Of a DNA stretch of 64,000 bases, positions 9,918-31,294 are shown piece after piece (positions within the stretch are counted from its first letter, which is position 1; each line of letters opens with the position of its first letter). The position numbers and the translations under genes are program-made. The DNA comes from Ignavibacteriales bacterium (GTDB taxonomy: Bacteria > Bacteroidota > Ignavibacteria > UBA10030), in the NCBI GenBank assembly GCA_016192345.1, contig JACPUH010000012.1, forward strand, positions 5,342 to 69,341. Reading direction: 5' to 3'. The notes beneath the pieces were generated by a model. The model was not told where the DNA came from. It ran no database searches and saw nothing but the letters and a program-made list of their open reading frames with translations.

Positions 9918-10074
9918 GACTAATCTCCGAATGCCTTTCCCAAAAAGTAATTTGGTTTTTTCACCGCGAAGGACGCAGAGTGCGCCGAGAACTCAGTTGT
10001 CAAATTAGCAATTCTTGCTCTGCGATCTCCGCGCCTCTGCGGTGAGAATACAAGGTTTTTGATTTGGATCGGCA

Positions 10075-10962: not shown

Positions 10963-11181
10963 GAACACGCTGCGACCTCTGTCTCTTACGGTATCATTGA
11001 TGGCAAACCGAGTCTTCAACAGTTATCATCAGACTCGTGGAAGTGTCCCTCAATCGACTTGGGTTTTAACTGCAAAGGTCTCAGAGGATACGCAAAGCAA
11101 TGTTTCCAAAATATTTCTCTGTGTCCTCTGTGTCTTTGCGGTAATTTCCTTCCCCGCGTAGGCCCTACCAGCACAGATAGT

Positions 11182-12435: not shown

Positions 12436-12467
12436 GAGTTTCTTCAAAGATGGTGCGGTGCTGTTGT

Positions 12468-14778: not shown

Positions 14779-17613
14779 TTAGCGAAGTACCATGAGTTTG
14801 CGAATTGCGGTAAAAGCCCCGGCCTGCAGGCGGACGAAGTAAATGCCGCTCGGCATGGCGTGTCCATTCACATCCCTCCCGTCCCATATCGCTCCATGGC
14901 GACCGGGATTCATTTCTCCTTCCTTCAAGGAGACCACTTCTTCACCGAGAAGCGTATACACCTTGAGGCTGATCGAGGCCGTCCGAGGAATGCTGTATTC
15001 AATTGTCGTGGTCGGGTTGAAAGGATTCGGATAGTTCTGATGCAGCGCAAACGCCGAGGGAGTCCCTTCGGTTTGCCGTTCGACCGACGTGGGGATCCCG
15101 AGCTCGGCATTTCTCCTGTTGGAGAATACACGGGCCGTATATTCCGGAATCGTTATCGAGGGAAGGGGGACCGTCGGCACGGTGAGGATACTTTCGTCAA
15201 ACACATCGTACCAGGTCCCGCTGGAGAGCCACGGAACATTCGCCATGGTTCTGGGAACCCCGCTCAGGTTTGCCACCACCATGACACCGGCGTTGCTCAC
15301 CGTATCCTCCAACGCCCACACAAGAACGCGTTCGGTTACGTAGCGCCCAAGCTTTCGGAGAACGCCGCTTGTGAGAGCGGGATTCAGTGTTCTCTGAAGG
15401 ATCAGCGATCGGTAATGGTTGAAGTGCGCCTGTCCACGCTCTGTAGACAAGAGGGACCATTGGAGCGGACGATAGACGAGCTTCTGCCCGTCCGAACTCC
15501 ACCCTCGTGGTTCAGCCCACTCCATTCCCTGCCAGAGCATCGGGATTCCGAGCGACGTGAACAAGAAGGTCGCATACAGTTTATCTCTCTGCACCGCCTC
15601 CCCGATCGCGACACTCTGAAATGCGTTCATCTCGTAGATGAGCGACTGCTCGTCATGCGTCACGGTGGCGTTCACCGGCTCCGTTCTTCCGGAGTATCGG
15701 TCGGGTATCGACGGCTGGTCATTGCTCGTATAGGCTCCGAGGTTGAGGACGAGTTCCTCAAGCGTTGCAAGATCCCTGTTCCGGAAGCGGGCCTCATCGA
15801 AGAGTTCGTCCCGAAAACTGTCATGCCATCCACCCGTCAGCCCGCTATGATAGATCAGGGCGGGACTTTCCGGAAGATGCTCCGCTATTTGGTATACGCT
15901 GTCGCCGTATTCAGTGGCGATGCGATTCGCCCACCCCAGGATACCCCTTGTTGGGTCGCGCGTGTCCCATCCAATGCCTTGTGTAAAATCATAGCGAAAG
16001 CCGTCGACCTTGTAAATGTCGAGCCACATCTTGAGAGATTGGTAAACGATTTCCTGGGTTTCGTTCGTCCAATGATCCATGTCCTTGAAGAAGAAGAGCG
16101 CGTCTTCGTTGAACCGGGAGTCGTTCTGCCGTTTGAAATACGGGTTGGCATCTTCGTCGGGTTGCATCTGCCAGAGGGGGCTCGTGTCATTCAGATGATT
16201 GAAAACCACGTCGACGATGACGGCAATGCCGCGTGCGTGTGCCGCGTCGACGAGCGCCTTGAAGTCGCGGGGAGTTCCGTAGACAGGCTCAAGAGCAAAG
16301 TAGCTGTTCAGGTCGTATCCCCACGAGTGGCCTGACCGCCCCACGGCCCCGTAGTCGTTCACCGGCATCAGCTCGATCGCGTTGACCCCCAGGGAATCCA
16401 GGTGCGGCAGGAGTTGCCGGAGATCGGCAAAAGTCCCCGGCTGGGAGGAGGAGCGATTGAAGAAGCCCCCGCCAAATTCCCCCACGTTCAGCTCATAAAT
16501 GACAAGCCGGTCCATGGAGGGACGTTCATAGCCGGTGGTCTGCCATGCATAATCATCGGCCGTCAGCCCCTCGGGTCCGACGGTAAAGCGGGTTCCCTGA
16601 TCGCCGGTATATCGCCCCCAGGGATCGTAGAGGAGCTTCCCGTCTTCGAGTTCATAGCGGTACTCATACGTACCGGGATTGAGTTTGAGGTTCATCCACC
16701 AGTCGTCGCCGGAGGAAACGTTTTTCCGCATCACGATGGCAGGAGCGGTCGCCACCGGCTGGCCCGCCGGGGCGATGCGCAGGAGAACGTAGGCTTTATC
16801 CCGGACACGCAACCGGAACGTCGTGGAATCTCCCCACACCGGTCCCTGCAGTGTGACACCATGGCCGGTGTTGCCCGGCATCAACATCCGCGGAACAACG
16901 TACCCCCCCTTCGCGAGGACCACGGAGTCCCCCTTGTCGTTGTAAGCAACGAGACGAATGTAATTGGTCTTCGGGATGGGCGCGAGGGGGGTGTACGAAA
17001 AAATTCTTCGCGTCCGGTCGAACGAGGAAATCACCTCCGCCGTCGGTAATGTGCTCGACACTTCCGCGCCGGTGGAGAAGAGGATGGATACGATGCTGTC
17101 CGCATTCGCATGGGGAAGGCCAGCAACGATCCGGGTGATTTCGCTCCCCGACTCCTGTTGGTACTGCTCGAACCAGAACAGACGGGTGAGACGCAGAACC
17201 GAATTGTTATTGTCGTTCGGGTTCGTTTCGGGATTCAGGGGATCGGACATCCACCCGGCATCCACCCCGCCACGATTGAATTTATACTGATAGACGGAAT
17301 CACCCATGCGCCTCGACTGATCACTTCCATCCTTGATTTTAAAGGTGAGGGTTTTGATCCACGCTGCATGCGATGCGTCGTAGGTCATGCGGGAGATCGC
17401 GGAGTTTGGCGTCCATCCATTGAATTCCCCCGGAAGATAGAAGGTCGTCGAGGGAGATTCGTGGCTTCTGAACGTGACGGTAATACTGTCCGCTCTGGTC
17501 TGGGCGGGGAGGGTGAGCGGTAGAAGACCCGCCGCTGCACCGAGCACCACCGACGCCAACCATGGCTTAGTCCGGTGGAATTGACGACTCCTGAATATGA
17601 GGCGGAGGATCAC
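14779..17613 (-). CDS. secreted GH13 alpha-amylase/pullulanase-like enzyme with N-terminal CBM-like modules and T9SS type-A C-terminal sorting domain
   Basis: GH13 motifs GIAVIVDVVFNH, GFRYDFTQGIG. N-terminal FNGWTP...YQYKF CBM-like module. C-terminal NYPNPFNPTTTIEYSIP...GIYFVRL T9SS CTD. Start uncertain: track start 17655 is TTG and overlaps the upstream small ORF; GTG at 17613 gives a plausible signal peptide. Confidence 0.8.
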   Translation of the reverse strand: MILRLIFRSRQFHRTKPWLASVVLGAAAGLLPLTLPAQTRADSITVTFRSHESPSTTFYLPGEFNGWTPNSAISRMTYDASHAAWIKTLTFKIKDGSDQSRRMGDSVYQYKFNRGGVDAGWMSDPLNPETNPNDNNNSVLRLTRLFWFEQYQQESGSEITRIVAGLPHANADSIVSILFSTGAEVSSTLPTAEVISSFDRTRRIFSYTPLAPIPKTNYIRLVAYNDKGDSVVLAKGGYVVPRMLMPGNTGHGVTLQGPVWGDSTTFRLRVRDKAYVLLRIAPAGQPVATAPAIVMRKNVSSGDDWWMNLKLNPGTYEYRYELEDGKLLYDPWGRYTGDQGTRFTVGPEGLTADDYAWQTTGYERPSMDRLVIYELNVGEFGGGFFNRSSSQPGTFADLRQLLPHLDSLGVNAIELMPVNDYGAVGRSGHSWGYDLNSYFALEPVYGTPRDFKALVDAAHARGIAVIVDVVFNHLNDTSPLWQMQPDEDANPYFKRQNDSRFNEDALFFFKDMDHWTNETQEIVYQSLKMWLDIYKVDGFRYDFTQGIGWDTRDPTRGILGWANRIATEYGDSVYQIAEHLPESPALIYHSGLTGGWHDSFRDELFDEARFRNRDLATLEELVLNLGAYTSNDQPSIPDRYSGRTEPVNATVTHDEQSLIYEMNAFQSVAIGEAVQRDKLYATFLFTSLGIPMLWQGMEWAEPRGWSSDGQKLVYRPLQWSLLSTERGQAHFNHYRSLILQRTLNPALTSGVLRKLGRYVTERVLVWALEDTVSNAGVMVVANLSGVPRTMANVPWLSSGTWYDVFDESILTVPTVPLPSITIPEYTARVFSNRRNAELGIPTSVERQTEGTPSAFALHQNYPNPFNPTTTIEYSIPRTASISLKVYTLLGEEVVSLKEGEMNPGRHGAIWDGRDVNGHAMPSGIYFVRLQAGAFTAIRKLMVLR

Positions 17614-17626
17614 GGTGGCTCGCCGG

Positions 17627-17806
17627 TTAAAATAGTGTGTAGATAAAAGGGGCAAGCGCGGAACCTTCCGTCAGGACGATGAGGAGACTCAGGAGCATCA
17701 GCACAACAATGATCGGGCCCAGCCACCATTTCTTCCGGACTTTCATAAAGCCCCAGAGTTCTCCCACGATCCGCAACCGGGACTTGGCGTGTTTGAGAAA
17801 TTTCAT
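17627..17806 (-). CDS. unannotated 59-aa small membrane protein, SxtK-like (DUF5989-type) carbamoyltransferase-associated protein
   Basis: Hand-translated, below track cut-off: MKFLKHAKSRLRIVGELWGFMKVRKKWWLGPIIVVLMLLSLLIVLTEGSALAPFIYTLF. KVRKKWWL-PI and APFIYTLF motifs match, from memory, the small protein co-occurring with NodU/CmcH carbamoyltransferases. Confidence 0.5.
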   Translation of the reverse strand: MKFLKHAKSRLRIVGELWGFMKVRKKWWLGPIIVVLMLLSLLIVLTEGSALAPFIYTLF

Positions 17807-18155
17807 ATCCTGAATCCTTTCCGCAATCGTTTACCAGACGCTGATGAACTCTTTATTATTTGCCACAAAGGGAAAAATCTTTTTCATGGGATCAACCATC
17901 GCCAAAGGCTGTGGCTTTTTTTTCCGTTGATTTTTCCCGCGAAACACACTAAACACACGAAATCAGATTTTCCCTTTCGCGTTTTTCGCGCCTGGCCCGG
18001 CATGTTTTGGCCGGGGTGTTTCGTGGGCAACTCTTTTCTGTTCCCTTGACCTGTTCGTAGACCGGAAAAGATTGCCGGCAATGCCGAACGTCCATAACGA
18101 CTGCCAGAAGCAGCGGGTTTTCACGTTGCGCTCCATTGAGACCTCTTCTCCAACG

Positions 18156-19895
18156 TCAGTCGGGGTCAAAGCGTTCTTCGAACTGTTCCTGCTTCCATTC
18201 GTTGCCCATCAATTTCTTCTCGAGGATGAAGCTCCCCATAACCAGGGCATCCATATCCGTACGCATGAAACAGCGCCACGCCTCTTCCGGCGTGCAGACA
18301 ATGGGTTCACCACGAACATTGAACGACGTATTGATCACCACGGGGCATCCGGTTTGCCGGTCGAATTCCTTCAGGAGATCGTAGAACAACGGGTGTTGCT
18401 TCCGATTGACGGTCTGCAACCGGGCCGAGCCATCGATATGCGTGACGGCCGGTATCTCCCTCTTCTCCGGCCGAACATCGGCGACGAACAGCATGAACGG
18501 GCTGGGTCCCTCGAACTCAAAATATTCGCTTGCCCGTTCCTCCAGGACCGCGGGAGCAAACGGCCGGAAACTCTCACGGAATTTGATCTTCAGATTCACC
18601 ACCGATTGGTTCCGCGGATTACGGGCATCGGCAAGGATGCTGCGGCTTCCCAGCGCGCGCGGTCCAAACTCCATCCGTCCCTGAAACCAGCCGACCACGT
18701 GCTGTTGCGAGATGAGTTCCGCGGTCTCCTTCAGCAGTTGTTCCCGTCCGCATGTTCGGAACGGTATCCCTTTCTCACGAAGGAAGGCGCCTATGTGATC
18801 GTCCCCGAATTCGGGACCCAGGAACGCGTCCTCCATCACAAAAGTCCTGGCGTTCTTCAGAAGTGTGTTGTGCACAAAGAAGGCCGCACCGACCGAACCG
18901 CCTGCGTCCCCGGCCGCCGGTTGTACGAAGATCTCCCGGAACGAGGTTTCCTCCAGCACCTTGCTGTTGGAGACGCAATTCAGCGCGACACCCCCTGCCA
19001 TGCAAAGGTTTTTCATCCCCGTCTCCCGCTCCGCCTGACGGGCCATCTGAACAACGATCGTATCCGTTGCCTTCTGGAGAGAGGCCGCAACATCCTTGTG
19101 GAATTGCCCGAGGGGGGACTCCGGATTCCGTCTCGGCTGTCCGAAGAGGGTCTCGAATTTCCTCCCCGTCATGGTCAGGGCATGGTGATAGGTAAAGTAT
19201 TTCATGTTGAGCTTGAAGCTTCCATCCGGCTTGAGCGAGACGAGTTCCCGCATGATGAGGTCGTACCACCGGGGTTCGCCGTAGGGAGCCAGCCCCATCA
19301 CCTTGTACTCTGCGCTGTTCACCCGGAACCCGAGATAATAGGTAAAGGCGGAGTAGAGCAACCCGAGGGAATGGGGAAAATGGATGGAGCGGGACAAATG
19401 AATATCATTGCCGCGTCCGTATCCCAGCGTCGCCGTTTCCCACTCCCCCACACCGTCGATCGTCAGGATGGCCGCTTCCTCAAACGGACTGACAAGAAAG
19501 GCGCTTGCCGCATGAGCGGTGTGATGATCGGTGAACAGGACCTCCCCCTCGTACCCCAGCTCCCGCTCGATGGTTTGCGGGATCCACATCTTCTCTTTCA
19601 GCCACACCGGCATCGCCTTAAGATAGGGGAGGTAGCCGAGGGGAAACGTGGCGAGCGATGTGAGGAGGATCCTTTCAAACTTGACGAAGGGCTTGTCATA
19701 GAACGCCACATAGTCAAGGTCGGAGACCGATATCCCCGCCTCCCGGAGACAGGAGTGAATGGCGTTCGTCGGGAAGCCGGGGTCGTGACGTTTCCGGGTA
19801 AAGCGTTCCTCCTGGGCCGCTGCGACCAGCGTTCCGTTCTGCACCAGCGCCGCCGCAGCATCGTGGTAGAAGCATGAGATCCCGAGGATGTTCAT
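18156..19895 (-). CDS. carbamoyltransferase, NodU/CmcH family
   Basis: 579 aa. N-terminal ILGISCFYHDAAAALV, full-length similarity to O-carbamoyltransferases (N-terminal ASKHA-like plus C-terminal YrdC-like domain). ATG verified. Confidence 0.85.
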   Translation of the reverse strand: MNILGISCFYHDAAAALVQNGTLVAAAQEERFTRKRHDPGFPTNAIHSCLREAGISVSDLDYVAFYDKPFVKFERILLTSLATFPLGYLPYLKAMPVWLKEKMWIPQTIERELGYEGEVLFTDHHTAHAASAFLVSPFEEAAILTIDGVGEWETATLGYGRGNDIHLSRSIHFPHSLGLLYSAFTYYLGFRVNSAEYKVMGLAPYGEPRWYDLIMRELVSLKPDGSFKLNMKYFTYHHALTMTGRKFETLFGQPRRNPESPLGQFHKDVAASLQKATDTIVVQMARQAERETGMKNLCMAGGVALNCVSNSKVLEETSFREIFVQPAAGDAGGSVGAAFFVHNTLLKNARTFVMEDAFLGPEFGDDHIGAFLREKGIPFRTCGREQLLKETAELISQQHVVGWFQGRMEFGPRALGSRSILADARNPRNQSVVNLKIKFRESFRPFAPAVLEERASEYFEFEGPSPFMLFVADVRPEKREIPAVTHIDGSARLQTVNRKQHPLFYDLLKEFDRQTGCPVVINTSFNVRGEPIVCTPEEAWRCFMRTDMDALVMGSFILEKKLMGNEWKQEQFEERFDPD

Positions 19896-19897
19896 CG

Positions 19898-20149
19898 TCA
19901 GAACTGCCTTTTACTTTGTTCCAGGGTCGGATCGACCGGCTCCCTCGCCTTCCAGTAACTTCCCTCGCCGCCAAGGCGACGATCCAGGTGGTCCTTTCCC
20001 AGCAGGCGTAGCACGAGAGCCACCGGAGCCAGCAGGAGAACATAGACGAGCGTCAGGATGATACGCGTATTGACATAGGCAAGTGCCCTGGCGAATTGCA
20101 TCCACCAACGATAGAGGGTGGAACCGAGTTTTTGAAGTCCCTGCTTCAT
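19898..20149 (-). CDS. small membrane protein, SxtJ-like carbamoyltransferase-associated partner
   Basis: 83-aa product from ATG at 20149 (MKQGLQKLGSTLYRWWMQFARALAYVNTRIILTLVYVLLLAPVALVLRLLGKDHLDRRL...). Ends 3 nt before the carbamoyltransferase start. The N-terminal 112 aa of the track ORF is low-complexity and unlikely coding. Confidence 0.45.
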   Translation of the reverse strand: MKQGLQKLGSTLYRWWMQFARALAYVNTRIILTLVYVLLLAPVALVLRLLGKDHLDRRLGGEGSYWKAREPVDPTLEQSKRQF

Positions 20150-20339
20150 GGTGATCCGGTCATCCGAGCGACGATGAAAAAAATACTGCGGCAACAACCC
20201 CGCTCCCTTCAGTGCACTCCTTTGCTCTTCGGGAGAAAGAGGGGTTCGTGCCGACAATTTGATTTTCAGACAAATACTTGATATTGTTCCGGCGTCATCG
20301 ATCCTGCCTTCACCATCACTCTTCGAAAGCTCACCCTGC

Positions 20340-22343
20340 GTGCGGCGTTCACGTTCATCACAACCACCCCCTTCTTCTCCCCCCACCTCCTCCCGGCGAA
20401 CCCTCTTTTCCCTTGCAACCCTCGCAATACCGATTCTCTTCTTTGTGCTCCTCGAAGGTTCTTTGCGCCTGCTTGAATACGGCACCGATCTTTCTCTCTT
20501 CGTCGAGGAAGAGATCGATGGAACATCCTACTGGATCATGAACCCCGATCTGAAGTCACGCTACTTTGCGCGCACCGGCTTCAGTCCGAACATGTCGACC
20601 GATTACTTCCGCATCCCCAAACCGGCCGGAACGTTCCGGATCATCTGCCTGGGCGGATCAACGACCATCGGATTCCCCTACGGCCAGAGCGGTTCGTTTG
20701 CGGCGTTCCTGCGGGAGCGTCTCCGGGCCGTCTTCCCCGGACGGACTATCGAGGTTATCAACCTCGGCATGACCGCCACCAACAGTTTTACGGTCAACGA
20801 CCTTGTCCGAGATCTTGAAGCGATCGAGCCGGACCTCCTCATGGTCTATGACGGGCACAACGAGTTCTACGGCGCCCTGGGAGTGGCTTCGAGCGAATCG
20901 CTCGGATCGCGTGGACTGACGAAAGCCTATCTCCGCCTGATCCACCTCAAGACATTTCAACTTCTTCGCAATCTTCTTGCCGATGTGTTCCGGGGCGAAG
21001 AGCATCGTCAGCCGGCGGGGACGATGATGGAACGCCTGGCCCGGGGCTCGGCTATCCCCTTTCGGGGCGACCTCTATAACCGGGCACTCGGCTACTTTCG
21101 GGAAAATCTTGAAGAGCTCCGGGAGACAGCCCTGAAGCAAAACATCCCTTTGATCGTTTCTACTCAGGTTTCCAATCTGCGCGATCAGCAGCCATTTCTC
21201 TCCGGGGGAAATCCCGACCTCGCCCCCGGTCCACGGGAAAGTGTTGAACGATCCCTTACCGCCGCCGCAGTCCTGGAAGGATCCGGCAAACGCCGTGAGG
21301 CGGTTCGACAGTATGAAGAAGCAATCAAGGTCGACTCGATGCAGGCCCGGGCGCATTATCGCCTCGCCCGGAACCTCGATACGCTCGGGGAACGGTCAAG
21401 AGCCCGGACGCATTACCAACGTGCGCGGGACCTGGATGAACTCCGGTTCCGGACGAGCAGCGACTTCAACGACGCTATCAGAGCGCTGGAGGTTCCCGGC
21501 CGGGTGATCCTGGCGGATCTTGAGGGGACGTTCGCCGCCCATTCCCCCGATTCCATCACCGGGTCCAACCTGATCCTCGAGCATCTCCATCCCAACCTCT
21601 CCGGAAGCTTTTTGATGGCCCGGGAAATCGCCTCTCTCATGCGCCGCTCTCAACTCCTGGGGACATCGGGGGAATGGCTCGCCGCGGATACCATCAGCGA
21701 TGCAACTCATTGGAGCAGACGCCTGACAACCCCCGTCGACGAACTGGCGGCCCGAAAGAGAATTGCCCTTCTCACCTCGGGATTTCCCTTCGGGCCTGCC
21801 GAAGCTCAGGCGTACACCCCTCCTGCCGACCCGCGCCTCGCCCTCATTGTGGACGAGCTTGTGGGAGGGCGCTCCACGTGGGAAGAAAGCCACGTCCGGG
21901 CGGCAGAGTACTTCGATTCCCTCAACGACCTTGAGAATGCCGCAACGGAGTACCGTGCCCTGGTGTATCAACTCCGCTACAATACCTCCTCATACTATCG
22001 GCTGGCCATAGTCTACGCCAGGGGGAAAAAGATCCGGGAGGCACGCGAGATTCTTTTCGAATCACTTCTCATCGACTCCACGTCGCTGGCGTTCCAGCTC
22101 CTCGGTCGGATAGCGCTGGAACACGAGGGGGCGGAGGCGGGGATTCCGTTTCTTGAAAAGGCATTCTCCCTCAGCAGTACCGTTGACGACCGCGCGGAGT
22201 GCGGGTACTTCCTGGCCCTTGCCTATGTTCAGGCCGGCAGGGCCGAACAAGCGGTCGAGCCGCTCGACCATGTTCTTCGCGTCAAGCCGGATTTTCCCGC
22301 CGCCAGGTCGCTCCGGGACCGAATCGGAAAGAGAGCACCATGA
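20340..22343 (+). CDS. membrane-anchored SGNH/GDSL-like hydrolase domain protein with C-terminal TPR repeats (paralog A)
   Basis: N-terminal TM helix, IICLGGSTT and DGHNEFYG blocks, C-terminal TPR-like repeats. Start inferred as GTG at 20340 by alignment with paralog B (VRRSRSSQPPP vs MSRSASPPPP). The track ORF has no ATG before the conserved region. Confidence 0.6.
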   Translation: MRRSRSSQPPPSSPPTSSRRTLFSLATLAIPILFFVLLEGSLRLLEYGTDLSLFVEEEIDGTSYWIMNPDLKSRYFARTGFSPNMSTDYFRIPKPAGTFRIICLGGSTTIGFPYGQSGSFAAFLRERLRAVFPGRTIEVINLGMTATNSFTVNDLVRDLEAIEPDLLMVYDGHNEFYGALGVASSESLGSRGLTKAYLRLIHLKTFQLLRNLLADVFRGEEHRQPAGTMMERLARGSAIPFRGDLYNRALGYFRENLEELRETALKQNIPLIVSTQVSNLRDQQPFLSGGNPDLAPGPRESVERSLTAAAVLEGSGKRREAVRQYEEAIKVDSMQARAHYRLARNLDTLGERSRARTHYQRARDLDELRFRTSSDFNDAIRALEVPGRVILADLEGTFAAHSPDSITGSNLILEHLHPNLSGSFLMAREIASLMRRSQLLGTSGEWLAADTISDATHWSRRLTTPVDELAARKRIALLTSGFPFGPAEAQAYTPPADPRLALIVDELVGGRSTWEESHVRAAEYFDSLNDLENAATEYRALVYQLRYNTSSYYRLAIVYARGKKIREAREILFESLLIDSTSLAFQLLGRIALEHEGAEAGIPFLEKAFSLSSTVDDRAECGYFLALAYVQAGRAEQAVEPLDHVLRVKPDFPAARSLRDRIGKRAP

Positions 22344-24370
22344 GCCGTTCTGCGAGTCCTCCGCCCCCGACCTTCGGATCCGTGACGAAAGAGAGAATTT
22401 TCCGCGGCGTTCTCCTTCTCATTCCGTTTCTCTTCCTCGCCCTCCTGGAGATGGGCCTGCGCCTTCTGGAGTATGGGGGAAACCTCGACCTCGTCGTGAC
22501 GCGCCGTGTGGGAAACCGCGACGTCTATTCCATCAACCGCAGTGCTGCCGCCCGCTACTTTTCCACCGCGGGGACTGTCATTCCCGAGCCCGCGGACGAC
22601 GTGTTTGAAATGGTGAAATCCGATTCGACGATCCGCATCTTCTGTCTTGGCGAATCGACGATGGCCGGCTTTCCCTATGATTTCAACGCAACGGCCCCCG
22701 GTTTTCTTCGCGACCGGCTCCAGATGCGGTATCCCGACAGGAAGATCGAGATCATCAACCTCGGACTCTCCGCTTCCAGCAGTTATATCGTTCTCGATTT
22801 CGTCGAAGAACTCCTCGCCTATCAACCGGATCTCTTCATCATCTATCTCGGTCACAACGAGTTCTATGGCGTGTATGGCGCCGGCTCTTCGGTCCGGATT
22901 CCGGGCGGACACCATTTGACCCGGTTCACCATCGAACTTCTGAACTTCAAGACCTATCTCCTGTTGCGGGACGGCATTGCATGGGTCCGCCAGTCCATCG
23001 CCAGCCCCTCTTTACGGCCGGGGGCAACCCTGATGGAGCAGATGGTCAGGGAACAACATATTCCGTATGGGAGCCCGCTCTATGGCGCCGCACTGGATGC
23101 GTATCGCGACAACCTTTTCCGCATCATTGGGGCGGCAAAAACAGCACGGGTGCCGGTCATGTTCAGCGACCTCGTCAGCAACGAAAAGGACCACCCGCCG
23201 TTTCGGCCGGTCTTTAACGAAACCACGGTCGAGGCCGTTCGGGACGAATGGAGGGGCCTCTTCAGCAAAGCAGAGAGTCTTGCCTCACAACGGCGGTTTG
23301 CCGAAGCCCTTGAGACCTACCGACGATGCATGCAACTGGACTCTCTGAATGCATCGGCAGTGTATGCGACCGGCTTGCTGGAATACGACCGCGGCTGGTA
23401 CGACGAGGCGAGGACCCTGCTGCAACGCGCAAAGGACCTCGATGCACTCCGGTTCCGGGCCTCCGAAGACTTCAAAGCCGCCTTGCGTGCCGTCTGCAAA
23501 GAGACGGGCACCGTTCTTGCTGAAACCGACTCTGCATTTCGCGCCTCTTCACCCCACGGCATCATCGGGAAGAACCTGATGCTCGAACACCTGCATCCGA
23601 ACCTGGACGGCTATATTCTGATGGCGGACGTCTTTGCCCGGACCATCCTGGAACGAAAAATCCTTCCAGTGGAGGATACTGCACCTCCCGCAACTCCGGG
23701 GGACAGCTCCGAACTGTATCGCCGGTCGGGCGCCACCATCTTCGACGAGACCGTCGGAAGAATCCGTGTCGAGATACTGACACGGCAGTGGCCCTTCCAG
23801 TCACGCGAAACGCCCTTTCTGTTCGAGCCTTCGAATCCCCTTGAACGGATCGTCTACCGGTATATCGATGGAACTCTCTTCTGGTCGACGGCCCGCTACG
23901 AGCTCGCCGACTATTTCGCGGCTTCCAGGGACTTCGAACGGGCGCGGCTCGAATGCCTCGCCGTCGCAAAGGTCATTCCCTATTCCTATCAACCGCTGCT
24001 GCGCGTCGCCGACTATTACCGCATGGAAGGAATCATCCCTGCTGCCGCGGCCGCATACCGACGGTGCATCGCCGTGGAGGACAATCCCTTTGCCCGCTTT
24101 AAGCTTGCCATCCTCCTGCTCGAAGGAGAGCAGGCCCGTGAGGCGATCACACACCTCGGCGAGGGACTCAAACTCTCCTCCAGGCCCGGAATGAACATCA
24201 GTCCCGAGGCCGTGGTCACCAGTCACTACTTGTTGGGGGTCGCGTACGCCAAACTCGGCCAGTGGGCCCTCGCGAGCAAGGAACTCGAGCAGGTGCTCTC
24301 GCTCGATCCCCATCACGCGGACGCCCGAAGCCTTCTTCAACAAATCGCGCATTCCCCCGTCATCCGCTGA
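22340..24370 (+). CDS. membrane-anchored SGNH/GDSL-like hydrolase domain protein with C-terminal TPR repeats (paralog B)
   Basis: Paralog of the upstream gene (IFCLGESTMAGFPY, LGHNEFYG, TPR C-terminus). ATG at 22340 overlaps the paralog A stop (ATGA), so likely translationally coupled. The track extension from 22199 is rejected. Confidence 0.65.
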   Translation: MSRSASPPPPTFGSVTKERIFRGVLLLIPFLFLALLEMGLRLLEYGGNLDLVVTRRVGNRDVYSINRSAAARYFSTAGTVIPEPADDVFEMVKSDSTIRIFCLGESTMAGFPYDFNATAPGFLRDRLQMRYPDRKIEIINLGLSASSSYIVLDFVEELLAYQPDLFIIYLGHNEFYGVYGAGSSVRIPGGHHLTRFTIELLNFKTYLLLRDGIAWVRQSIASPSLRPGATLMEQMVREQHIPYGSPLYGAALDAYRDNLFRIIGAAKTARVPVMFSDLVSNEKDHPPFRPVFNETTVEAVRDEWRGLFSKAESLASQRRFAEALETYRRCMQLDSLNASAVYATGLLEYDRGWYDEARTLLQRAKDLDALRFRASEDFKAALRAVCKETGTVLAETDSAFRASSPHGIIGKNLMLEHLHPNLDGYILMADVFARTILERKILPVEDTAPPATPGDSSELYRRSGATIFDETVGRIRVEILTRQWPFQSRETPFLFEPSNPLERIVYRYIDGTLFWSTARYELADYFAASRDFERARLECLAVAKVIPYSYQPLLRVADYYRMEGIIPAAAAAYRRCIAVEDNPFARFKLAILLLEGEQAREAITHLGEGLKLSSRPGMNISPEAVVTSHYLLGVAYAKLGQWALASKELEQVLSLDPHHADARSLLQQIAHSPVIR

Positions 24371-24412
24371 GAAGGAAAAGAGGAAAACCAACCGGGCCTT
24401 TCCCCTTTTCCC

Positions 24413-24446
24413 GAGGCCGTCCAAAAGGTACCCTTTGGACGGCCTC
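24413..24446. terminator. perfect 13-bp inverted repeat hairpin between convergent genes (candidate bidirectional terminator)
   Basis: GAGGCCGTCCAAA-aggtaccc-TTTGGACGGCCTC, lying between the end of the + strand SGNH/TPR gene and the end of the - strand T9SS CBM protein gene. No clear U-tract. Confidence 0.45.
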
Positions 24447-24475
24447 TCTCAACGTATTATACGTTCGACTGCATC

Positions 24476-26365
24476 TTACTTCAACAGCACCATCCGTTTC
24501 ACTTCCCGGAAGAGTCCGGCCCGCAGCTCGTAGAAATACACACCCGTCGGCAGCGACGAGGCCTCGAACAGCGTCACGTGATTCCCCGCCGGCTGAATCT
24601 CATTGACCAGGTCGGCCACAACTTGCCCGAGCAGGTTGAAGACCCGGAGTCGGACCTGTTCCTGCTGTGGCAACGAGTATTTGACATGGGTCGATGGGTT
24701 GAACGGATTGGGGTAGTTCTGGAAGAGGGTGAAGACCCCCGGAGTTCCCACGGCGATGTCATCGTCAATGCCCGTCAGACCGTCAAAACTTTCGACGGGC
24801 ATCGGGGCATTCTTCTGCCACACATCGATCGGCAGCGTGTACGTCCGTGGAAATGTCTGCGATGAAAGCGGACGTATGAACCGCGAACGGTAGGGAGCCT
24901 GAACGCCCAGTCCTCCGCCTTCGGAGACCGAACCGGTCCCCGTCCCGCCATGCACATAGGTCATGGTGTACTGCAGGTTGTAGTGGGCGGGCCCGCGGAT
25001 ATTCATTCTTCCTGAATAAATGGAATCGCCGGCCACTGCATCGGGGGCGAGCCCGTCATCCTTGAGAACGAGATCCGGTGGATTGCCCTGGAAGGACTTC
25101 TGGAGGGCATCCTGCCAGGTGATTTTCGCCGTATCGACACCGCGAACGAAGGGATCGATGTAGGCCATGGCCGGCCGCATATCGTACCGGAAAACCACGG
25201 TCACCGTATCCCCCGTCTTGATCGTCCCGGCCAACGGAATGCTGCTGAACCGAAACGCGGGGGTCTGCAGATTCCCTCCGGCCCCGAGGTTGAACTTCCT
25301 GTTGCCATCGCCGCTTTCCGACGGATGGTCGTAGGCAAATCCATCTCTCGTGCTGGTGGACCCGCTGTGGATGTACCCCGGGAACCTCGCTGTGGCTCCC
25401 GCGGAATCGAAATCGATGAAGAACTTGAAATCGAGATTGTCGAACGTTCCGCCGGTATAGGGGATCGCAACCTCGTACGTCTCCGTTCCCGGGACGCGTA
25501 TCATCTTCGTCCCCCCCCAGCTGTTGAACGCTCCGCGCACCTCTATGGAGTCGCCGTTCGATCTCTGGAACCATCCCATGGTGGCGAAGGTCGACATATC
25601 CACGCGCCACAGGATCGATCCGCTAGTGGGCGTATTGACAACCTCATCGGCGTCAAAATAGGTGAGGTTCACCGAGCCGCCCCCTGTCGGAACCGTATAC
25701 GTCTTGTTATCGCCCCCCTCCCAATCCGATCCGCCCCGCGGGGTCTTCAGATACTTATACTGGATCTGCGTTCCTTCCAGCATCGTGACCGATTTGGAAT
25801 AGATGCTGTCGGTGGCCCCTTTCTTGAGGGTATCGGTTGAGTTCCCCCAATCGTTGAAGCTCCCTGCCACGCGGACGATATCCCCGCTTCCCGGCAGGAA
25901 ACTTTCCTCGAGCATTTTCACGCGCATATTCACGCGGAAGGTGACCGCAACATTAGCCGCGGGCGTAAACACCGAGTCGTTGTCAAACCAGACGACCGGA
26001 AGCGTTTGGGCTCCCGCAACGACCGTGTACGTCTTGTTGTCCCCGCCTTCCCAGTCGAGACCGCCTCGCAGGGTTTTTAGAAACTTATATTGAATGCTTC
26101 CGGCAGCCAGGGAGACGGTTTTTGTGTAAATGCTGTCGCCCGGGCCGGAGGATTTCAACGTATCCGTTGAGTTCCCCCAGTCATTGAAGCTCCCTGCCAC
26201 CCGGACAATATCTCCGGCGCCGGGATTAAATGTCCCCTCGCGCATCTTGATGCTCATATTGACGCGAACTGTCACACTGTTCTGCGCTTCGACGACGGCG
26301 TCAAAAGCGATCGGAACAATGAAGATGGCGAAGGCGAGACAAGAGTAGAGTATGTTCCTACGCAT
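24476..26365 (-). CDS. T9SS-secreted surface protein with tandem CBM20/CBM48-like starch-binding modules (non-catalytic, SusE/F-like role inferred)
   Basis: Signal peptide. Two near-identical ~109-aa modules (VRVAGSFNDWGNSTDTLK...IQYKFLKT / IQYKYLKT) plus a third degenerate module (VRGAFNSWGG). No catalytic motifs. C-terminal T9SS CTD NYPNPFNPSTHVKYSLP...GVYFYELRAG. Confidence 0.7.
   Translation of the reverse strand: MRRNILYSCLAFAIFIVPIAFDAVVEAQNSVTVRVNMSIKMREGTFNPGAGDIVRVAGSFNDWGNSTDTLKSSGPGDSIYTKTVSLAAGSIQYKFLKTLRGGLDWEGGDNKTYTVVAGAQTLPVVWFDNDSVFTPAANVAVTFRVNMRVKMLEESFLPGSGDIVRVAGSFNDWGNSTDTLKKGATDSIYSKSVTMLEGTQIQYKYLKTPRGGSDWEGGDNKTYTVPTGGGSVNLTYFDADEVVNTPTSGSILWRVDMSTFATMGWFQRSNGDSIEVRGAFNSWGGTKMIRVPGTETYEVAIPYTGGTFDNLDFKFFIDFDSAGATARFPGYIHSGSTSTRDGFAYDHPSESGDGNRKFNLGAGGNLQTPAFRFSSIPLAGTIKTGDTVTVVFRYDMRPAMAYIDPFVRGVDTAKITWQDALQKSFQGNPPDLVLKDDGLAPDAVAGDSIYSGRMNIRGPAHYNLQYTMTYVHGGTGTGSVSEGGGLGVQAPYRSRFIRPLSSQTFPRTYTLPIDVWQKNAPMPVESFDGLTGIDDDIAVGTPGVFTLFQNYPNPFNPSTHVKYSLPQQEQVRLRVFNLLGQVVADLVNEIQPAGNHVTLFEASSLPTGVYFYELRAGLFREVKRMVLLK
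25620..26270. repeat. intragenic tandem duplication (2 x ~327 bp) encoding the two near-identical CBM-like modules
   Basis: The repeated peptide VRVAGSFNDWGNSTDTLK recurs 109 residues apart. Antisense ORFs at 25803 and 26130 share VEFPQSLKLPATRTISP, confirming near-identity at nucleotide level. Unit boundaries approximate. Confidence 0.6.
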
Positions 26366-26464
26366 TGCCTCCTCCTTTATTGAAATGGATTGAAGTGTGA
26401 ATTAGGCACAATCAAATGGAACAAAGTCGTTTTCCGCACCCTCCTTTCATGGACAAGATGATGG

Positions 26465-27568
26465 TTAAAAGTGAACACTGATGGTAACCGTGTGAGCGTT
26501 TTGCAGTCTTCCAAAATCCTCGTACGCGTAATCGATCCGTGTCGCCACACCCGTGGAGATTTCGTACCGAAGTCCCCCACCGACGGTAAAGCGTTCTTCG
26601 CTCTCCGCAACGCCCAGCGCCTTGTAGCCGCCCCGCAGGGAAACCATCCGTTGCAGGAGAGAATACTCGAATCCGACATTGACGCTCTCGGAGTTGTCGT
26701 TCGGGTGGGCGGCATCCAGGGCGATGATAAGGCGCTGGTCGTCGTTCGCCACCGGCTCGTAGGAAAATCCGATGCGGAGGTTCAGGGGAAGATCGAAACG
26801 ATCCGTCGTCAGGTTGGCGTTGATGTTCGGATTGTTCCCCTTGTTCGGGGAGATATCTTTCTGCACCAGGAGGTCGTCTCCCGTGATCTGCATCTTCTGA
26901 CCGAAATTCGAGACGCCGGCGCCGAAGGTCACGCCGGGGAACGGCGTGGTAAAGAGCGTGCCGATGTCGATGGCAAAGCCGGAGGCGCTCGAGTTCCAGA
27001 TCGTCTCCTGCACGTATTTTGCATTCACGCCGATGGAAAACCAGTCCGTCAGATTCCTCGCGTACGAAACACCGAAGGCAAAGCTCCCGGCTGTAAAGAA
27101 ATCCCCGGTCCCGTCGGGCTGGTCCTCGGTTGTCCGCTCCATCTCGCCGTAGGAGAGCATCGTCAGATTGAAACCCAAAACCCCCAGTCCTTCAAACGGG
27201 AGAACGATCCCGGCATAATTAAAGTCGATATCGGCGACCCAGTCTGCATGATACACCATCGCCTCGCGCGCGGTGAGACGGGCCATGCCCCCAGGGTTCC
27301 AGTACATCGACGACGCGTCGTCGGAGAGGGAGACAAAGGCTCCCCCCATGCCGAGCGCGCGGGCCCCGACCGGAATGCTCAGGAACTTTGCAGCCGTGGT
27401 TCCAATCTTCGTCACCGGTTGTCCCGTCATGGTGACGGGGAGTGCGGAAGCGAGCAGGATCAATCCGCTCCAAAGTATCAGTATGCGTTTCACGAACGAT
27501 CTCCTTTTATTCCCGGCAGAGGCTGCATGCAGAGCCCCGGACCGGTACGTCCCGTTCCAGGCCGTCAT
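26465..27568 (-). CDS. T9SS-associated FadL-like outer-membrane beta-barrel, PorV/PorQ-like (or PorP/SprF-like)
   Basis: Signal peptide. N-terminal FLSIPVGARALGMGGAFVSLSDDASSMYWNPGGMA (NPA-type hatch motif). Alternating beta-strand pattern to a C-terminal aromatic residue. 4-nt overlap with the upstream T9SS cargo gene. Alternative GTG start at 27493. Confidence 0.5.
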   Translation of the reverse strand: MTAWNGTYRSGALHAASAGNKRRSFVKRILILWSGLILLASALPVTMTGQPVTKIGTTAAKFLSIPVGARALGMGGAFVSLSDDASSMYWNPGGMARLTAREAMVYHADWVADIDFNYAGIVLPFEGLGVLGFNLTMLSYGEMERTTEDQPDGTGDFFTAGSFAFGVSYARNLTDWFSIGVNAKYVQETIWNSSASGFAIDIGTLFTTPFPGVTFGAGVSNFGQKMQITGDDLLVQKDISPNKGNNPNINANLTTDRFDLPLNLRIGFSYEPVANDDQRLIIALDAAHPNDNSESVNVGFEYSLLQRMVSLRGGYKALGVAESEERFTVGGGLRYEISTGVATRIDYAYEDFGRLQNAHTVTISVHF

Positions 27569-30500
27569 TTGATGATGGCAAACTTTCCGACTTTTTCCCC
27601 GATCCCCGGTGCATCGATGTGGTAGATATAGATCCCGTATGAAGCCGAGAGGTTATCCCGGGTCAGGAGATTCCATTCCGCGGAGCCGTTGAGCATCGTA
27701 CTGTTGTGGTCGATGGAGGCTACCAGCTCCCCCGCCACGGTGTAGATGCGAATCGTGCATTGTTGCGGCAGGCGGATGAAATGAATCGAACGCGGTCCCC
27801 GCCCCGAGTTAAACGGGTTGCGCTCCTCCCAGGTCGCGGCAGCCACGTACGGGTTCGGCACCACCCTGATCCGGTCCAGATCCGATTCCGCAAGCTCCGC
27901 GTCGACCTTTTGGCCCGTGGTTGTGAACTCGAACACATCGGAGGAACGGAAGATCTTGGAGAGAACAACCGTCGCCGTATCGCCGGCTTGCGGGCGCCGC
28001 TTGCCGTTGGTCGTGTCGAAGTTGACGCTGAAACTCCAGGTCAGCGCAAGGGAGTCTTTCGTGTCCCGCTCCAGGAAGATGATGATATCTTGTTCATCGC
28101 GGTTCGCCGTGAAGGTCCCCTCCCCTTCCGAGAGGTCGAGCTCCCAGAACGCAAAGTCGATCTGCTTGTTTTCACTCGTGTTGATCACTTTGAAATTGAC
28201 CCGCTTCGAGGGGAGCGGCGGATCGGACCCGAAGAGGGTCGACCGGACTGAATAACTGGTCGAGGTATCGGTTCCCAACGGCCCGAAGATCACTTTGTAG
28301 TCGGCCGGTTTCTGCACCCCGGTGATGGTACCGCTCTTCCACTGCTCAAAACGGTACGGCAGAACCGGGGCTCTGCTCCAGTGCGAAAGCGTCTGGTTGA
28401 CGCCGAACGTTTTCTCGTTCAGAAGAACCAACCGGAATCCGTCCGTCATCGGATGCTCCACGCCATCCTCCAGATTCCTGCTCCGGTCGATCAACGTCAA
28501 AGGAGTGCCGGCATTCGTGACGTCGGCCAGCGTGAAGCTCTTCGTCTTGAACGTATCGGGTGCATTGGCGCCGCCGGAGATCGTCGTATCTTCGAAGGTG
28601 ACCCGGTAACGATGATTGTCTTTAACTTTCGTCGGGTCGATCAGTGCGAAGCCGACCCGCCCCGTCGTGCTGCCGCTGACCAGTTCAGCCGGTGCAATGG
28701 AGGAAGGAAGATAACCGGCGACCGGCGCTTCCGGTCGTACGATGGCAACGGAGGTGCCAAAGGATTTTATGGACCCGGTGAGATTGTCGAGATTGATCTT
28801 GAGGTTGCTCTCCGCGGGGGCGATCTGGAGAGATTGAAATCCGCCATCGTACGCCCGAATGGCATAATAGTACGTTTGGCCGTTCTGGACGGTGGTATCG
28901 ACCCACGAGTGCTGCAGGCCCGTGTCGCTGCCAAGGTCGAACTGGACTCCGTTGAAGGCGATGGGATGGAACCCCTTGATGCCGTCCGCCAGGTCAAACT
29001 GAGCGATCGGCCTCAGGTAGGGGGCCGGGCTGCCGTAGGCATCCGTGACGACGCGGGCATCCTCAAAGGCAGGGTCGGTTGCCCGGTAGATTCTGTAACC
29101 CTGAAAATCTTTTGCTTTCGCGCCGGGAATTCCCTGCAGGAACCGGTCGATCGATTCTTCAGCGAGGTCATCCCAGTAGAGCGTCACCCTCCGGTCGCCC
29201 GCGACGGCCGTCATCGTCGGCTCGAGTGGCGCCTGGGCGAACTGGTAATCTTCATTGTAAGCAAGCTGCGCAAACTCCCTCTTTCTGAGAGCGTCATCCC
29301 TCGCTCCGCTGACGTTCGCATTCCCCGCACGAATGGCTGCCCCGAAGACAACGGCGTACGAGATGCGCTCAATCTGACCCGGACGCAACGGGAACAATCC
29401 CGATGAAACGAAAAGATCGCTCTCCCCCACCGGCAACAACGCAGGATTGACAAAGCTCCCCGGGATCATGAAATTAGCCCAGAAGAAAATGTCAGCCGTC
29501 GTGGTGAAGTTGATGGCGCCGGCTGCCAGGTACTGCACGTTGGTCAAACCGATCTGATCGGCCTCGGAGACGTCCGTCTTGTCGATGTTCGGCTCCCCTG
29601 GAAAGGGAGTCCCCGCACCCGAGGTCGGACGCCCATTCCCTTCGCCAGTATCGCCGGTCCCGGGGGCGCCATCCAATCCCACATCGTCCGTCAGCGGATT
29701 CCAGTCACCGTCGTTATCGATGCCGTCATCCCGGGATTCGTCGATCATCTCGTCGATCCCTTCGTCGATGCCTGCATCTTTCGCTCCATCCCGGTTAAGG
29801 TACTTCTTGCCGACATCCTCGGGTCCAACGTCATACAGAATGACGCCGGTCCCGGGCACGCGGAATCGCTTGTAAGAATCGCTGGCCGCCTGGGTAACCA
29901 TCGCAGCGGTCACGGCCGGCCAAGCGCCATGGGCGTTCCCGTCGTTATCGATGTTATCCTTGAACTTCCTGCCGATGTCCTGCGTCCGGAGCGCGATCAG
30001 GTGGATGATACCCCCCTGCAGTGGATCGGTTTCCGGATTGGGAGGCCACCGGTTCCATTTTCGTCCCGTCACTTCGTCGTTGTCGGACTGGGTCACCATG
30101 GCCGCGGTGACGGTCGGACTGTTCGATTCGCCGTTCCCGTTGTCATCCAACCCATTGGCATATCCCACACCCGCCTGTTGACCGAACGCGATGTGCGTCG
30201 AGTCTTCGTCGATGAGGCCGTTCTTGTTATTGTCGATCCCATCACCGCTCGTTTCACCCTGGATCAGGGACGAGGTAACCTTCGGCCCCAACGATTCTCC
30301 ATCCCCGTCGTTATCGACACGGTCCACCGCGTTGCCGGGCGTCTCCAGGTAGAGTGTTGCAGCGGCGCCGACAAGCGCTCCCTGGAAGGAGGGATTCGAA
30401 CTGACGCCGTCGTTATCAAGGGAGAATGCAACGTCCCGCAAAAGGTCGAAATCGGGCGCATCGTCCTGGGAATCCCCATCGCCCCCGACGAAGTCGGCCA

Positions 30501-31254: not shown

Positions 31255-31294
31255 ACGTGAATAACCGGGGCGGTATGGCCCGGTGTACTTCCTG

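Follow-up and report, generated by a model that had tools for sequence, protein, structure and literature searches.

What is encoded by two large, adjacent genes whose named homologues carry, nearly all of them, the label "tetratricopeptide repeat protein"? The question arises in a 64,000-nucleotide stretch of an Ignavibacteriales genome (contig JACPUH010000012.1, positions 5,342 to 69,341 of the forward strand; hereafter the window), where paralog A (20340..22343, plus strand, 667 aa, GTG start) is followed by paralog B (22340..24370, plus strand, 676 aa, ATG start), and both lie next to a divergently transcribed carbamoyltransferase unit. Structure prediction, residue conservation and comparison of gene neighbourhoods lead us to regard A and B as bona fide members of the SGNH superfamily, with a putative esterase or acyl-transfer activity, which may take part in editing a cell-envelope glycan.

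Fold, active site and membrane topology of paralogs A and B

The original prediction, made from the letters of the sequence, described two related proteins of about 670 residues whose reading frames overlap, and this description holds. Across their full lengths A and B are 34% identical (E 8e-110), a sequence similarity that puts their paralogy far beyond chance, and they contain the motif pairs that had been quoted for them (CLGGSTTIGFPY in A and CLGESTMAGFPY in B; DGHNEFYG in A and LGHNEFYG in B). The ATG of B (22340–22342) shares bases with the TGA of A (22341–22343), forming an ATGA overlap. B is 100% identical to one protein of an Ignavibacteriales metagenome-assembled genome (MAG).

In both proteins, Pfam detects Lipase_GDSL_2 together with several tetratricopeptide repeat (TPR) families above cut-offs. 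The AlphaFold2 model of full-length A is of high confidence (pLDDT 92.9, pTM 0.90); since its sequence and Foldseek searches against the PDB returned TPR proteins only (consensus TPR proteins, OGT and MamA), the catalytic region was modelled separately, as B aa 40–490 (pLDDT 90.1). Every PDB match of this region with E <1e-3 has an SGNH fold, natural or designed (target TM-scores 0.52–0.75). The matches include the acetyl-xylan esterase Axe2, GDSL esterases, acetyl-mannan and sialate O-acetylesterases, the peptidoglycan O-acetyltransferase PatB, and TesA. Those at the top (E 1e-6 to 1e-3, target TM-scores 0.6–0.77) are mostly carbohydrate O-acetyl esterases, with alignments of about 350 columns that bridge the TPR insert described below. 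The SGNH fold that had been proposed from motifs is thus recovered by modelling, with the three-layer alpha/beta/alpha arrangement, the five-stranded parallel sheet and blocks I, II, III and V of the superfamily.

The layout of A consists of a basic tail (aa 1–20), a transmembrane helix, a beta-hairpin, a split SGNH domain and a C-terminal TPR arm. The first part of the SGNH domain (aa 98–295; 20631..21224, plus strand), delimited by Pfam, alignment and model, carries block I (CLGGS107T in A, CLGES106T in B) with the predicted nucleophile Ser107 (20658–20660), block II (N141-x-G143) and block III, a Gly-His-Asn174-Glu motif whose Asn174 (20859–20861) would contribute to the oxyanion hole; a helical insert of about 90 residues (aa 176–266) is also lodged in this part. 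It is followed by a two-repeat TPR insert (aa 296–364; 21225..21431), matched by Pfam TPR_11, TPR_16 and TPR_2 at aa 311–366 and modelled as helices 296–314, 318–331, 336–348 and 352–364, and then by the second part of the SGNH domain (aa 365–480; 21432..21779), with block V (Glu414-x-x-His417, 21579–21590). The strands of the sheet fall on both sides of the insert in the model (98–105, 136–141, 166–170 and 271–274; 389–392). Because block V (LEHLHPN, aa 413–419) comes after the TPR insert, Pfam covers only the first half of the GDSL model. The C-terminal TPR arm (aa 498–665; 21831..22334) comprises about five helix pairs, in keeping with the C-terminal repeats of the original prediction, to which the extra two-repeat unit within the SGNH domain has to be added; the repeats are of the tandem 34-residue helix-turn-helix type in both proteins. 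B has the same architecture on the same strand, with Ser106 at 22655–22657, Asn173 at 22856–22858, Glu416 and His419 at 23585–23596, a TPR insert at about aa 298–367 (23231–23440) and C-terminal TPRs reaching to about aa 669.

To map the active site onto the family, we used an alignment of 68 homologs covering both paralog types and a second alignment of 123 full-length members from 79 loci. Ser107, Asn141/Gly143, Gly-His-Asn174-Glu, Glu414-His-x-His417-Pro and the motif that closes the TPR insert, D364-x-D366-x-x-R369-F370-R371, are invariant in the former. Across the clades of the latter (A, B and C, see below), Ser107, Asn174 and His417 are each conserved in 123/123 members and Gly143 in 121/123, while the acid at position 414 is either Glu (116 members) or Asp (7 members). 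A Glu in place of the Asp of block V is a variant known in the SGNH superfamily (PMC8760489). The catalytic machinery of A and B is a predicted Ser-His-Glu triad with a Gly/Asn oxyanion hole, so that the residues sought on the strength of the motifs were all located. We also considered that one paralog might be a dead pseudoenzyme, and discarded the idea as the catalytic residues are kept in all three clades.

An hhalign comparison of the family profile with a provisional TesA sequence placed GESTM on GDSLS and GHNE on GGND; the whole-profile alignment was confined to blocks I–III because of the TPR insert, and a sub-alignment of block V to the same provisional sequence (HPN on HPN) was short and weak.

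The signal-anchor helix of A lies at about aa 21–38 (20400..20453, plus strand; helix 17–44 in the model), and is followed in the homolog alignment by invariant E39 and L42 and near-invariant R43, Y47 and G48. Among 61 homologs, the mean net charge is +3.2 in the 15 residues before the helix and –1.1 in the 15 residues after it, and 98% of them obey the positive-inside rule, with more positive charge on the N-side. This asymmetry argues for an N-in orientation and therefore a periplasmic catalytic domain, and, on these sequence features, A and B each appear to be held in the inner membrane by a single signal-anchor helix.

The suspicion that A needs a GTG start is supported, and with it the presence of a plausible start 5' of the transmembrane segment. 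The open reading frame (ORF) of A, ending at 22343, offers TTG 20259 and GTG 20340 as candidates, with no ATG upstream of the transmembrane segment. GTG 20340 yields a 20-residue basic tail comparable to the tails of 15–25 residues in about 60 homologs, and the next in-frame start, a GTG at codon 36, would cut the helix; TTG 20259 is an alternative candidate. In a closely related locus (L002), a 91%-identical orthologue of A (10001–11899, protein P0001, 632 aa) has a public call that is 35 residues shorter; its start matches the GTG within the transmembrane helix, losing the membrane anchor, and is probably a start-codon miscall. Just 5' of the GTG of A, the segment 20257–20339 shows one substitution in about 110 bp relative to L002, a conservation exceeding that of the flanking coding sequence, and could be a 5' leader, a promoter or a translation start at TTG 20259. 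Scans for promoters and terminators over 19800–24600 gave chance-level results only, and an Rfam scan of 17500–24600 gave no credible match.

Family distribution and the carbamoyltransferase unit

The family is large. Among the candidates scored, 666 homologs were found at E ≤1e-10 with A as the query and 1043 with B. An exhaustive phmmer search, in which the query was the first half of the SGNH domain only and the targets were clusters at 50% identity, returned at least 577 clusters at E ≤1e-30 and 2674 at E ≤1e-10, the top matches being mostly 600–750 aa long. In GTDB species genomes at least 590 stretches contain the family, under the labels Ignavibacteriota, Bacteroidota (as MAG labels), Kryptoniota and KSB1. 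For this family, public names of which stop at the repeats, the present analysis supplies a structural and catalytic annotation; our literature search found no description of it or of a general association between carbamoyltransferases and SGNH proteins.

Three clades, with 26–31% identity between them, comprise the 123 aligned members: A (84), B (20) and C (19). In the 79 GTDB loci from which they come, sampled around A with 10-kb flanks, the A>B tandem occurs in 19 loci and in one more complex locus, with A and B abutting or overlapping in most of them. A is convergent with a C gene in 12 loci (A> <C), precedes it in tandem in 6 (A>C>) and stands alone in 41, often on truncated contigs. Conservation of the two paralogs as a pair, which had been left to be checked, is accordingly a feature of one lineage, the second place being taken elsewhere by the clade C paralog (18 loci) or by none. 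On a 3.0-Mb Ignavibacteriota contig (L001/L021), the B orthologue is divided into two ORFs of 375 and 329 aa, reflecting a frameshift or a pseudogene, and a third A-like paralog of 603 aa, whose block I falls outside the pattern used, lies between two amylase genes; the unusual ORFs of this locus are at 5128–6939 and 11941–14029.

In the window, A is separated from the carbamoyltransferase unit by a divergent spacer of exactly 190 bp (20150..20339), as originally described. The unit occupies 17627–20149 on the minus strand. Next to the spacer is an SxtJ-like membrane protein (19898..20149, 83 aa, one transmembrane helix; PF19588, E 1.5e-11), followed by a cytoplasmic O-carbamoyltransferase of the NodU/CmcH/SxtI type (18156..19895, 579 aa; Carbam_trans_N E 5.8e-93, Carbam_trans_C E 7.5e-75). 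The third gene of the unit, absent from the earlier description, encodes a DUF5989 (SxtK-like) protein (17627..17806, 59 aa, single transmembrane helix; PF19451, E 2.4e-25) that has a 98%-identical orthologue in L002. The SxtJ-like protein covers profile positions 54–98 of 99, that is, one transmembrane helix and the conserved C-terminal motif, while planctomycete, proteobacterial and cyanobacterial versions have 134–143 aa. A homolog search with the 83-aa protein gave 5 matches only; the SxtJ profile hidden Markov model detects an SxtJ-like gene in all related loci that carry the carbamoyltransferase. In the window, an insertion of about 320 bp (17826–18150) separates the end of the carbamoyltransferase gene from the beginning of DUF5989. 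It is absent from the ~94%-identical L002, where the two genes abut; it has no copy elsewhere in the window or in the fetched loci, and no Rfam match.

To view the association from the side of the carbamoyltransferase, we sampled 80 metagenome loci whose enzymes are 50–63% identical to that of the window. Taken together with 7 plasmid loci (87 in all), SxtJ was present in 71 and DUF5989 in 68. For the 80 metagenome loci, we then compared the immediate neighbours flanking the unit (113 proteins) with 120 control genes that lie at a distance of over 3 kb in those loci. Lipase_GDSL_2 was the commonest family among the nearest neighbours (21/113, against at most 1/120 of the controls, where GDSL did not figure among families with two or more members; Fisher p ~1e-6), and the next commonest outside GDSL/SGNH and TPR reached 3/113. 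The control genes were rich in glycosyltransferases, sugar-nucleotide dehydratases/epimerases and methyltransferases.

Distant SGNH–TPR relatives, 26–30% identical to A and B, also adjoin the unit. They flank it singly in three loci (L091, L095 and L103) and as tandem pairs in three others, downstream of the unit in L139 (unit > pair), upstream of it in L128 (pair > unit) and convergent with it in L167 (unit > < pair). The genes of L091, L095 and L103 and the complete gene of L139 keep GHNE, [DE]-H-x-H-P and D-x-D-x-L-R-F-R. The proteins of L128 and L167 have GNNE and do not match the simple patterns for blocks I and V, and of these two pairs only that of L128 retains D-x-D-x-L-R-F-R.

In other phyla, membrane-anchored SGNH/GDSL proteins of another subfamily (405–451 aa, with N-terminal transmembrane helices) stand directly beside the unit; the carriers are Sinorhizobium meliloti pSymB, Ensifer canadensis, Leisingera, a Rhodobacteraceae plasmid and Gemmatirosa. 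The S. meliloti (L083, record 483075–487277) and Ensifer (L087) loci each bring together an SGNH gene, a hypothetical gene in the SxtJ position, DUF5989 and the carbamoyltransferase. In Ensifer the genes of this module share a strand and are next to genes for GT4, a flippase and polysaccharide export. Both carriers are cultivable rhizobia, which makes the module tractable there. On planctomycete plasmids, the unit is found inside exosortase/exopolysaccharide loci. On plasmid 2 of Gemmatirosa kalamazoonensis (L088), it stands among a CysN/CysC fusion, a CysQ-like phosphatase, an AT3-SGNH acyltransferase and a 445-aa GDSL protein, which suggests sulfation, acylation and carbamoylation of one glycan. 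Across these samples, the unit is habitually accompanied by a membrane-anchored extracytoplasmic SGNH enzyme, in glycan-biosynthesis neighbourhoods.

Seen from A, the association is facultative. About 13 of the 79 loci have the unit within 10 kb, among them nine in the divergent arrangement of the window, two with the unit 5 kb upstream and one (L064, 8859–16603) in the order GT9 heptosyltransferase > A > carbamoyltransferase > SxtJ/DUF5989 < C, an order which hints that some lineages could target the lipopolysaccharide (LPS) core. The link to the carbamoyltransferase that the original prediction drew therefore stands as an enrichment around the unit, and not as a constant companionship of A. 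We had also considered that the carbamoyltransferase might be obligatory for A and B, and dropped this since the 3.0-Mb contig keeps the A/B locus with no unit in its 10-kb flanks.

Candidate roles in the cell envelope

What, then, might A and B do? We put at about even the chances that they are translationally coupled periplasmic enzymes forming the SGNH part of a four-part carbamoylation set, and that they edit ester or carbamate substituents on envelope glycans. The set would consist of an SxtI-like O-carbamoyltransferase, the SxtJ-like and DUF5989/SxtK-like membrane proteins, and a membrane-anchored extracytoplasmic SGNH enzyme. In such a scheme, the carbamoyltransferase, held at the membrane by the two small proteins, would add O-carbamoyl groups, at the cytoplasmic face, to an envelope glycan that is lipid-linked or nascent; after export, the SGNH–TPR enzymes would hydrolyse, and possibly re-position, ester or carbamate substituents, while their TPR elements might dock the enzymes to one another or to partner proteins. 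A and B would act downstream of the carbamoyltransferase unit where the unit is present, much as in a writer/eraser pair such as PatA/PatB with Ape1. It is the repeated occurrence of SGNH–TPR genes beside a set that adds carbamoyl groups which makes the editing of small decorations on a cell-envelope sugar polymer probable. Fold, catalytic residues, membrane topology, pairing, family size and neighbourhood statistics are what the data show; the substrate class (a glycan), whether the reaction is hydrolysis or transfer, what the TPRs do and whether A and B form a complex are inferred, and the data fit a hydrolase as well as a transferase.

A number of observations weigh against this proposal. 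The unit accompanies A in only the minority of loci given above and is missing beside it on the 3.0-Mb contig, and therefore the core role of the family cannot depend on an adjacent carbamoyltransferase. Similarity of SGNH folds leaves the substrate undefined. The window contains no glycosyltransferase, flippase or polysaccharide export gene near A and B, and within about 8 kb on each side there is no MBOAT or AT3 acyl-donor partner. The most constant neighbours of A in Ignavibacteriota are amylase genes upstream and a convergent type IX secretion system (T9SS) operon downstream, and the amylase and PorV-family/T9SS-cargo genes are left unexplained by the editing scheme. In an hhalign comparison with the SxtL-like SGNH proteins of Sinorhizobium and Rhodobacteraceae, orthology to SxtL found no significant support (E 0.27–0.32). 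Our literature search found no paper with the term DUF5989, and none on an SGNH–TPR partner of a carbamoyltransferase. To our knowledge, neither the SGNH–TPR family nor the SxtJ, SxtK and SxtL proteins include a characterised member.

Among the alternatives, the one that fares best is a housekeeping envelope esterase or acyltransferase, acting for instance on O-acetyl groups of peptidoglycan, on the LPS core or on lipid A, with TPRs that couple it to the synthesis machinery and an incidental carbamoyltransferase. It would account for the 66 of 79 A-centred loci that have no unit and for the near-ubiquity of the family in Ignavibacteriota-type MAGs (the at least 590 GTDB stretches). It also agrees with the presence of PatB among the fold matches, with the heptosyltransferase directly upstream of A in L064 and with an LpxL-like acyltransferase 6.5 kb upstream in L139. 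It is harder to reconcile with a unit that adjoins family members in at least six distinct arrangements over deep divergence, with the strong enrichment of SGNH proteins beside carbamoyltransferase units in general, and with a window in which no peptidoglycan or LPS gene is adjacent; we regard it as somewhat unlikely.

A bolder form of the carbamoylation scheme would join the SGNH–TPR pair, the carbamoyltransferase and the two small proteins into one envelope-spanning machine that decorates a surface glycan with O-carbamoyl groups; activation would take place in the cytoplasm, and in the periplasm the SGNH domain would install, migrate or proof-read the group. It would do for carbamoyl groups what the PatA/PatB or AlgI/AlgJ/AlgX relays do in O-acetylation. 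We consider such a machine distinctly unlikely, but if it exists, SxtJ, SxtK/DUF5989 and SxtL-type proteins of many phyla would for the first time have a role in a mechanism.

A strict relay is less probable again, and we hold it to be very unlikely: here the carbamoyltransferase would load a membrane carrier, the small proteins would present or flip it, and the SGNH enzyme would transfer the carbamoyl or acyl group to a periplasmic acceptor. The module does bring together an enzyme that activates the group in the cytoplasm, proteins in the membrane and an SGNH domain beyond it, and SGNH domains are established as extracytoplasmic transferases in known O-acetylation relays, of which PatA/PatB (PatB being a fold match), AlgI/AlgJ/AlgX and OatA are the relevant analogues. 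Yet the SxtJ-like and DUF5989 proteins, at 83 and 59 aa with one transmembrane helix each, are far below the size of MBOAT or AT3 translocators, the characterised carbamoyltransferases TobZ and NodU are established to modify their final substrate directly, and the Ser/Gly/Asn/His motifs are those of a canonical hydrolase with no sign of transferase specialisation.

The neighbouring genes raise a further explanation, that A and B belong to starch utilisation or the T9SS, for instance as a periplasmic esterase acting on imported oligosaccharides or as a modifier of the surface glycolipid that carries T9SS cargo. Genes for GH13 and GH57 enzymes lie upstream, and B is convergent with an operon on the minus strand. 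This encodes a CBM20 cargo protein with a T9SS tail (24476–26365), a PorV/PorQ-family barrel (26465–27568), a 1229-aa protein that neither Pfam nor NCBIfam matches (27565–31254) and an 899-aa ORF (31295–33994) whose 899-aa counterpart in L002 is CarboxypepD_reg/Plug receptor-like; together, 24476–33994 resembles a T9SS-linked unit for starch uptake that lacks SusD. The genes around A and B, to a distance of about 8 kb in either direction, are those for GH57, GH13, DUF5989, the carbamoyltransferase, the SxtJ-like protein, the CBM20 cargo, the PorV-family barrel, the 1229-aa protein and the receptor-like protein. Across loci the operon comprises a CBM20 T9SS cargo, a PorV/PorQ-family protein, a protein of about 700–1230 aa and a TonB-dependent-receptor-like protein.

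This neighbourhood of amylase genes and T9SS operon is retained in most of the 79 loci, and the three-way arrangement also occurs in L091, L095 and L103, whose SGNH–TPR proteins are about 29% identical to A and B, and, rearranged, in L038; these lineages are very distant. Against a functional tie, starch carries no ester groups, A and B are transcribed as a separate unit from the other strand, and L128, L139 and L167 combine an SGNH–TPR pair and the carbamoyltransferase unit with none of the starch or T9SS genes. Genomes of this kind probably contain many genes for T9SS cargo and receptors, which makes chance adjacency combined with inherited synteny plausible, and we consider a role of A and B in this system very unlikely.

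Finally, A and B might be lipases or lysophospholipases with membrane lipids or lipoproteins as substrates, in line with the name that JGI gives to a few homologs (COG2755, 'lysophospholipase L1-like esterase'). This would suit an enzyme at the membrane surface and the TesA fold match with its aligned blocks, but is extremely unlikely given that the best fold matches are carbohydrate esterases and that the recurrent partners are the carbamoyltransferase and glycan-biosynthesis genes, not genes of lipid metabolism.

Should the editing of substituents by a four-part carbamoylation set be correct, O-carbamoylation and de-carbamoylation of envelope glycans may be a common, overlooked modification.

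Comparison with known systems

The structurally nearest solved proteins are Axe2-type carbohydrate esterases (4jko/3w7v, E 1e-6, target TM-score 0.68), which have blocks I, II, III and V in the same order as A and B at 10–15% identity. They are soluble domains of about 200 aa, to which A and B add the transmembrane anchor, the beta-hairpin, the ~90-aa helical insert, the TPR insert and the TPR arm, with Glu for Asp in block V.

A second group consists of PatB/Ape1 for peptidoglycan and AlgJ/AlgX for alginate, whose extracytoplasmic SGNH domains esterify or de-esterify polymers that have been exported, and of which AlgJ is membrane-anchored; TPR proteins such as AlgK scaffold glycan O-acetylation pathways. 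The likeness of A and B to PatB is at the level of the fold (Foldseek E 2e-4 for B), and neither A nor B matches Pfam ALGX at E up to 0.1. A and B differ from these systems in that catalytic and TPR modules are fused, and in that the recurrent partner is a carbamoyltransferase and not an acetyl translocator.

The sole characterised protein we found with an SGNH domain followed by TPRs, as in A and B, is TviD, the Vi-antigen O-acetyltransferase, which has an N-terminal SGNH domain and a C-terminal TPR region (PMC8760489). Three templates given there for its modelling, 1YZF, 5JD3 and 3W7V, are also among the fold matches of B. The catalytic residues reported for TviD are Cys18/His253, with an atypical block I and with blocks II and III not conserved; the protein is described without a membrane anchor, which on our reading would make it cytoplasmic. 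A and B, in contrast, have an N-in transmembrane anchor and a predicted periplasmic location, a canonical Ser with canonical blocks II and III, and a further two TPRs set into the SGNH fold; they are not adjoined by a TviE-like GT4 gene.

The gene content of the locus has its nearest parallel in the cyanobacterial saxitoxin clusters, in which sxtI (the carbamoyltransferase) is accompanied by sxtJ, sxtK (165 bp) and sxtL, the last encoding a GDSL lipase that has been proposed to remove carbamoyl groups (PMC2679770, PMC2684587, PMC2885083). As there, the window places a Carbam_trans_N/C enzyme, a PF19588 protein, a DUF5989 protein about as small as SxtK and an SGNH/GDSL enzyme side by side, with A and B 190 bp from the SxtJ-like gene. 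The window differs from the saxitoxin clusters in that its SGNH gene is duplicated and transcribed divergently, with products of about 670 aa containing TPR insertions, whereas SxtL has about 426 aa and no TPR; it also has no toxin-pathway genes, and its SxtJ-like protein is short, with one transmembrane helix. A and B occupy the SxtL position of an SxtIJKL-like set, and are not detectably orthologous to the proteobacterial SxtL-like proteins compared above. The SxtJ/carbamoyltransferase/DUF5989 unit, hitherto only an unexplained piece of saxitoxin clusters, is now tied to an SGNH partner, and the roles of SxtJ, SxtK and SxtL-type proteins become testable in tractable bacteria, such as S. meliloti with its pSymB locus.

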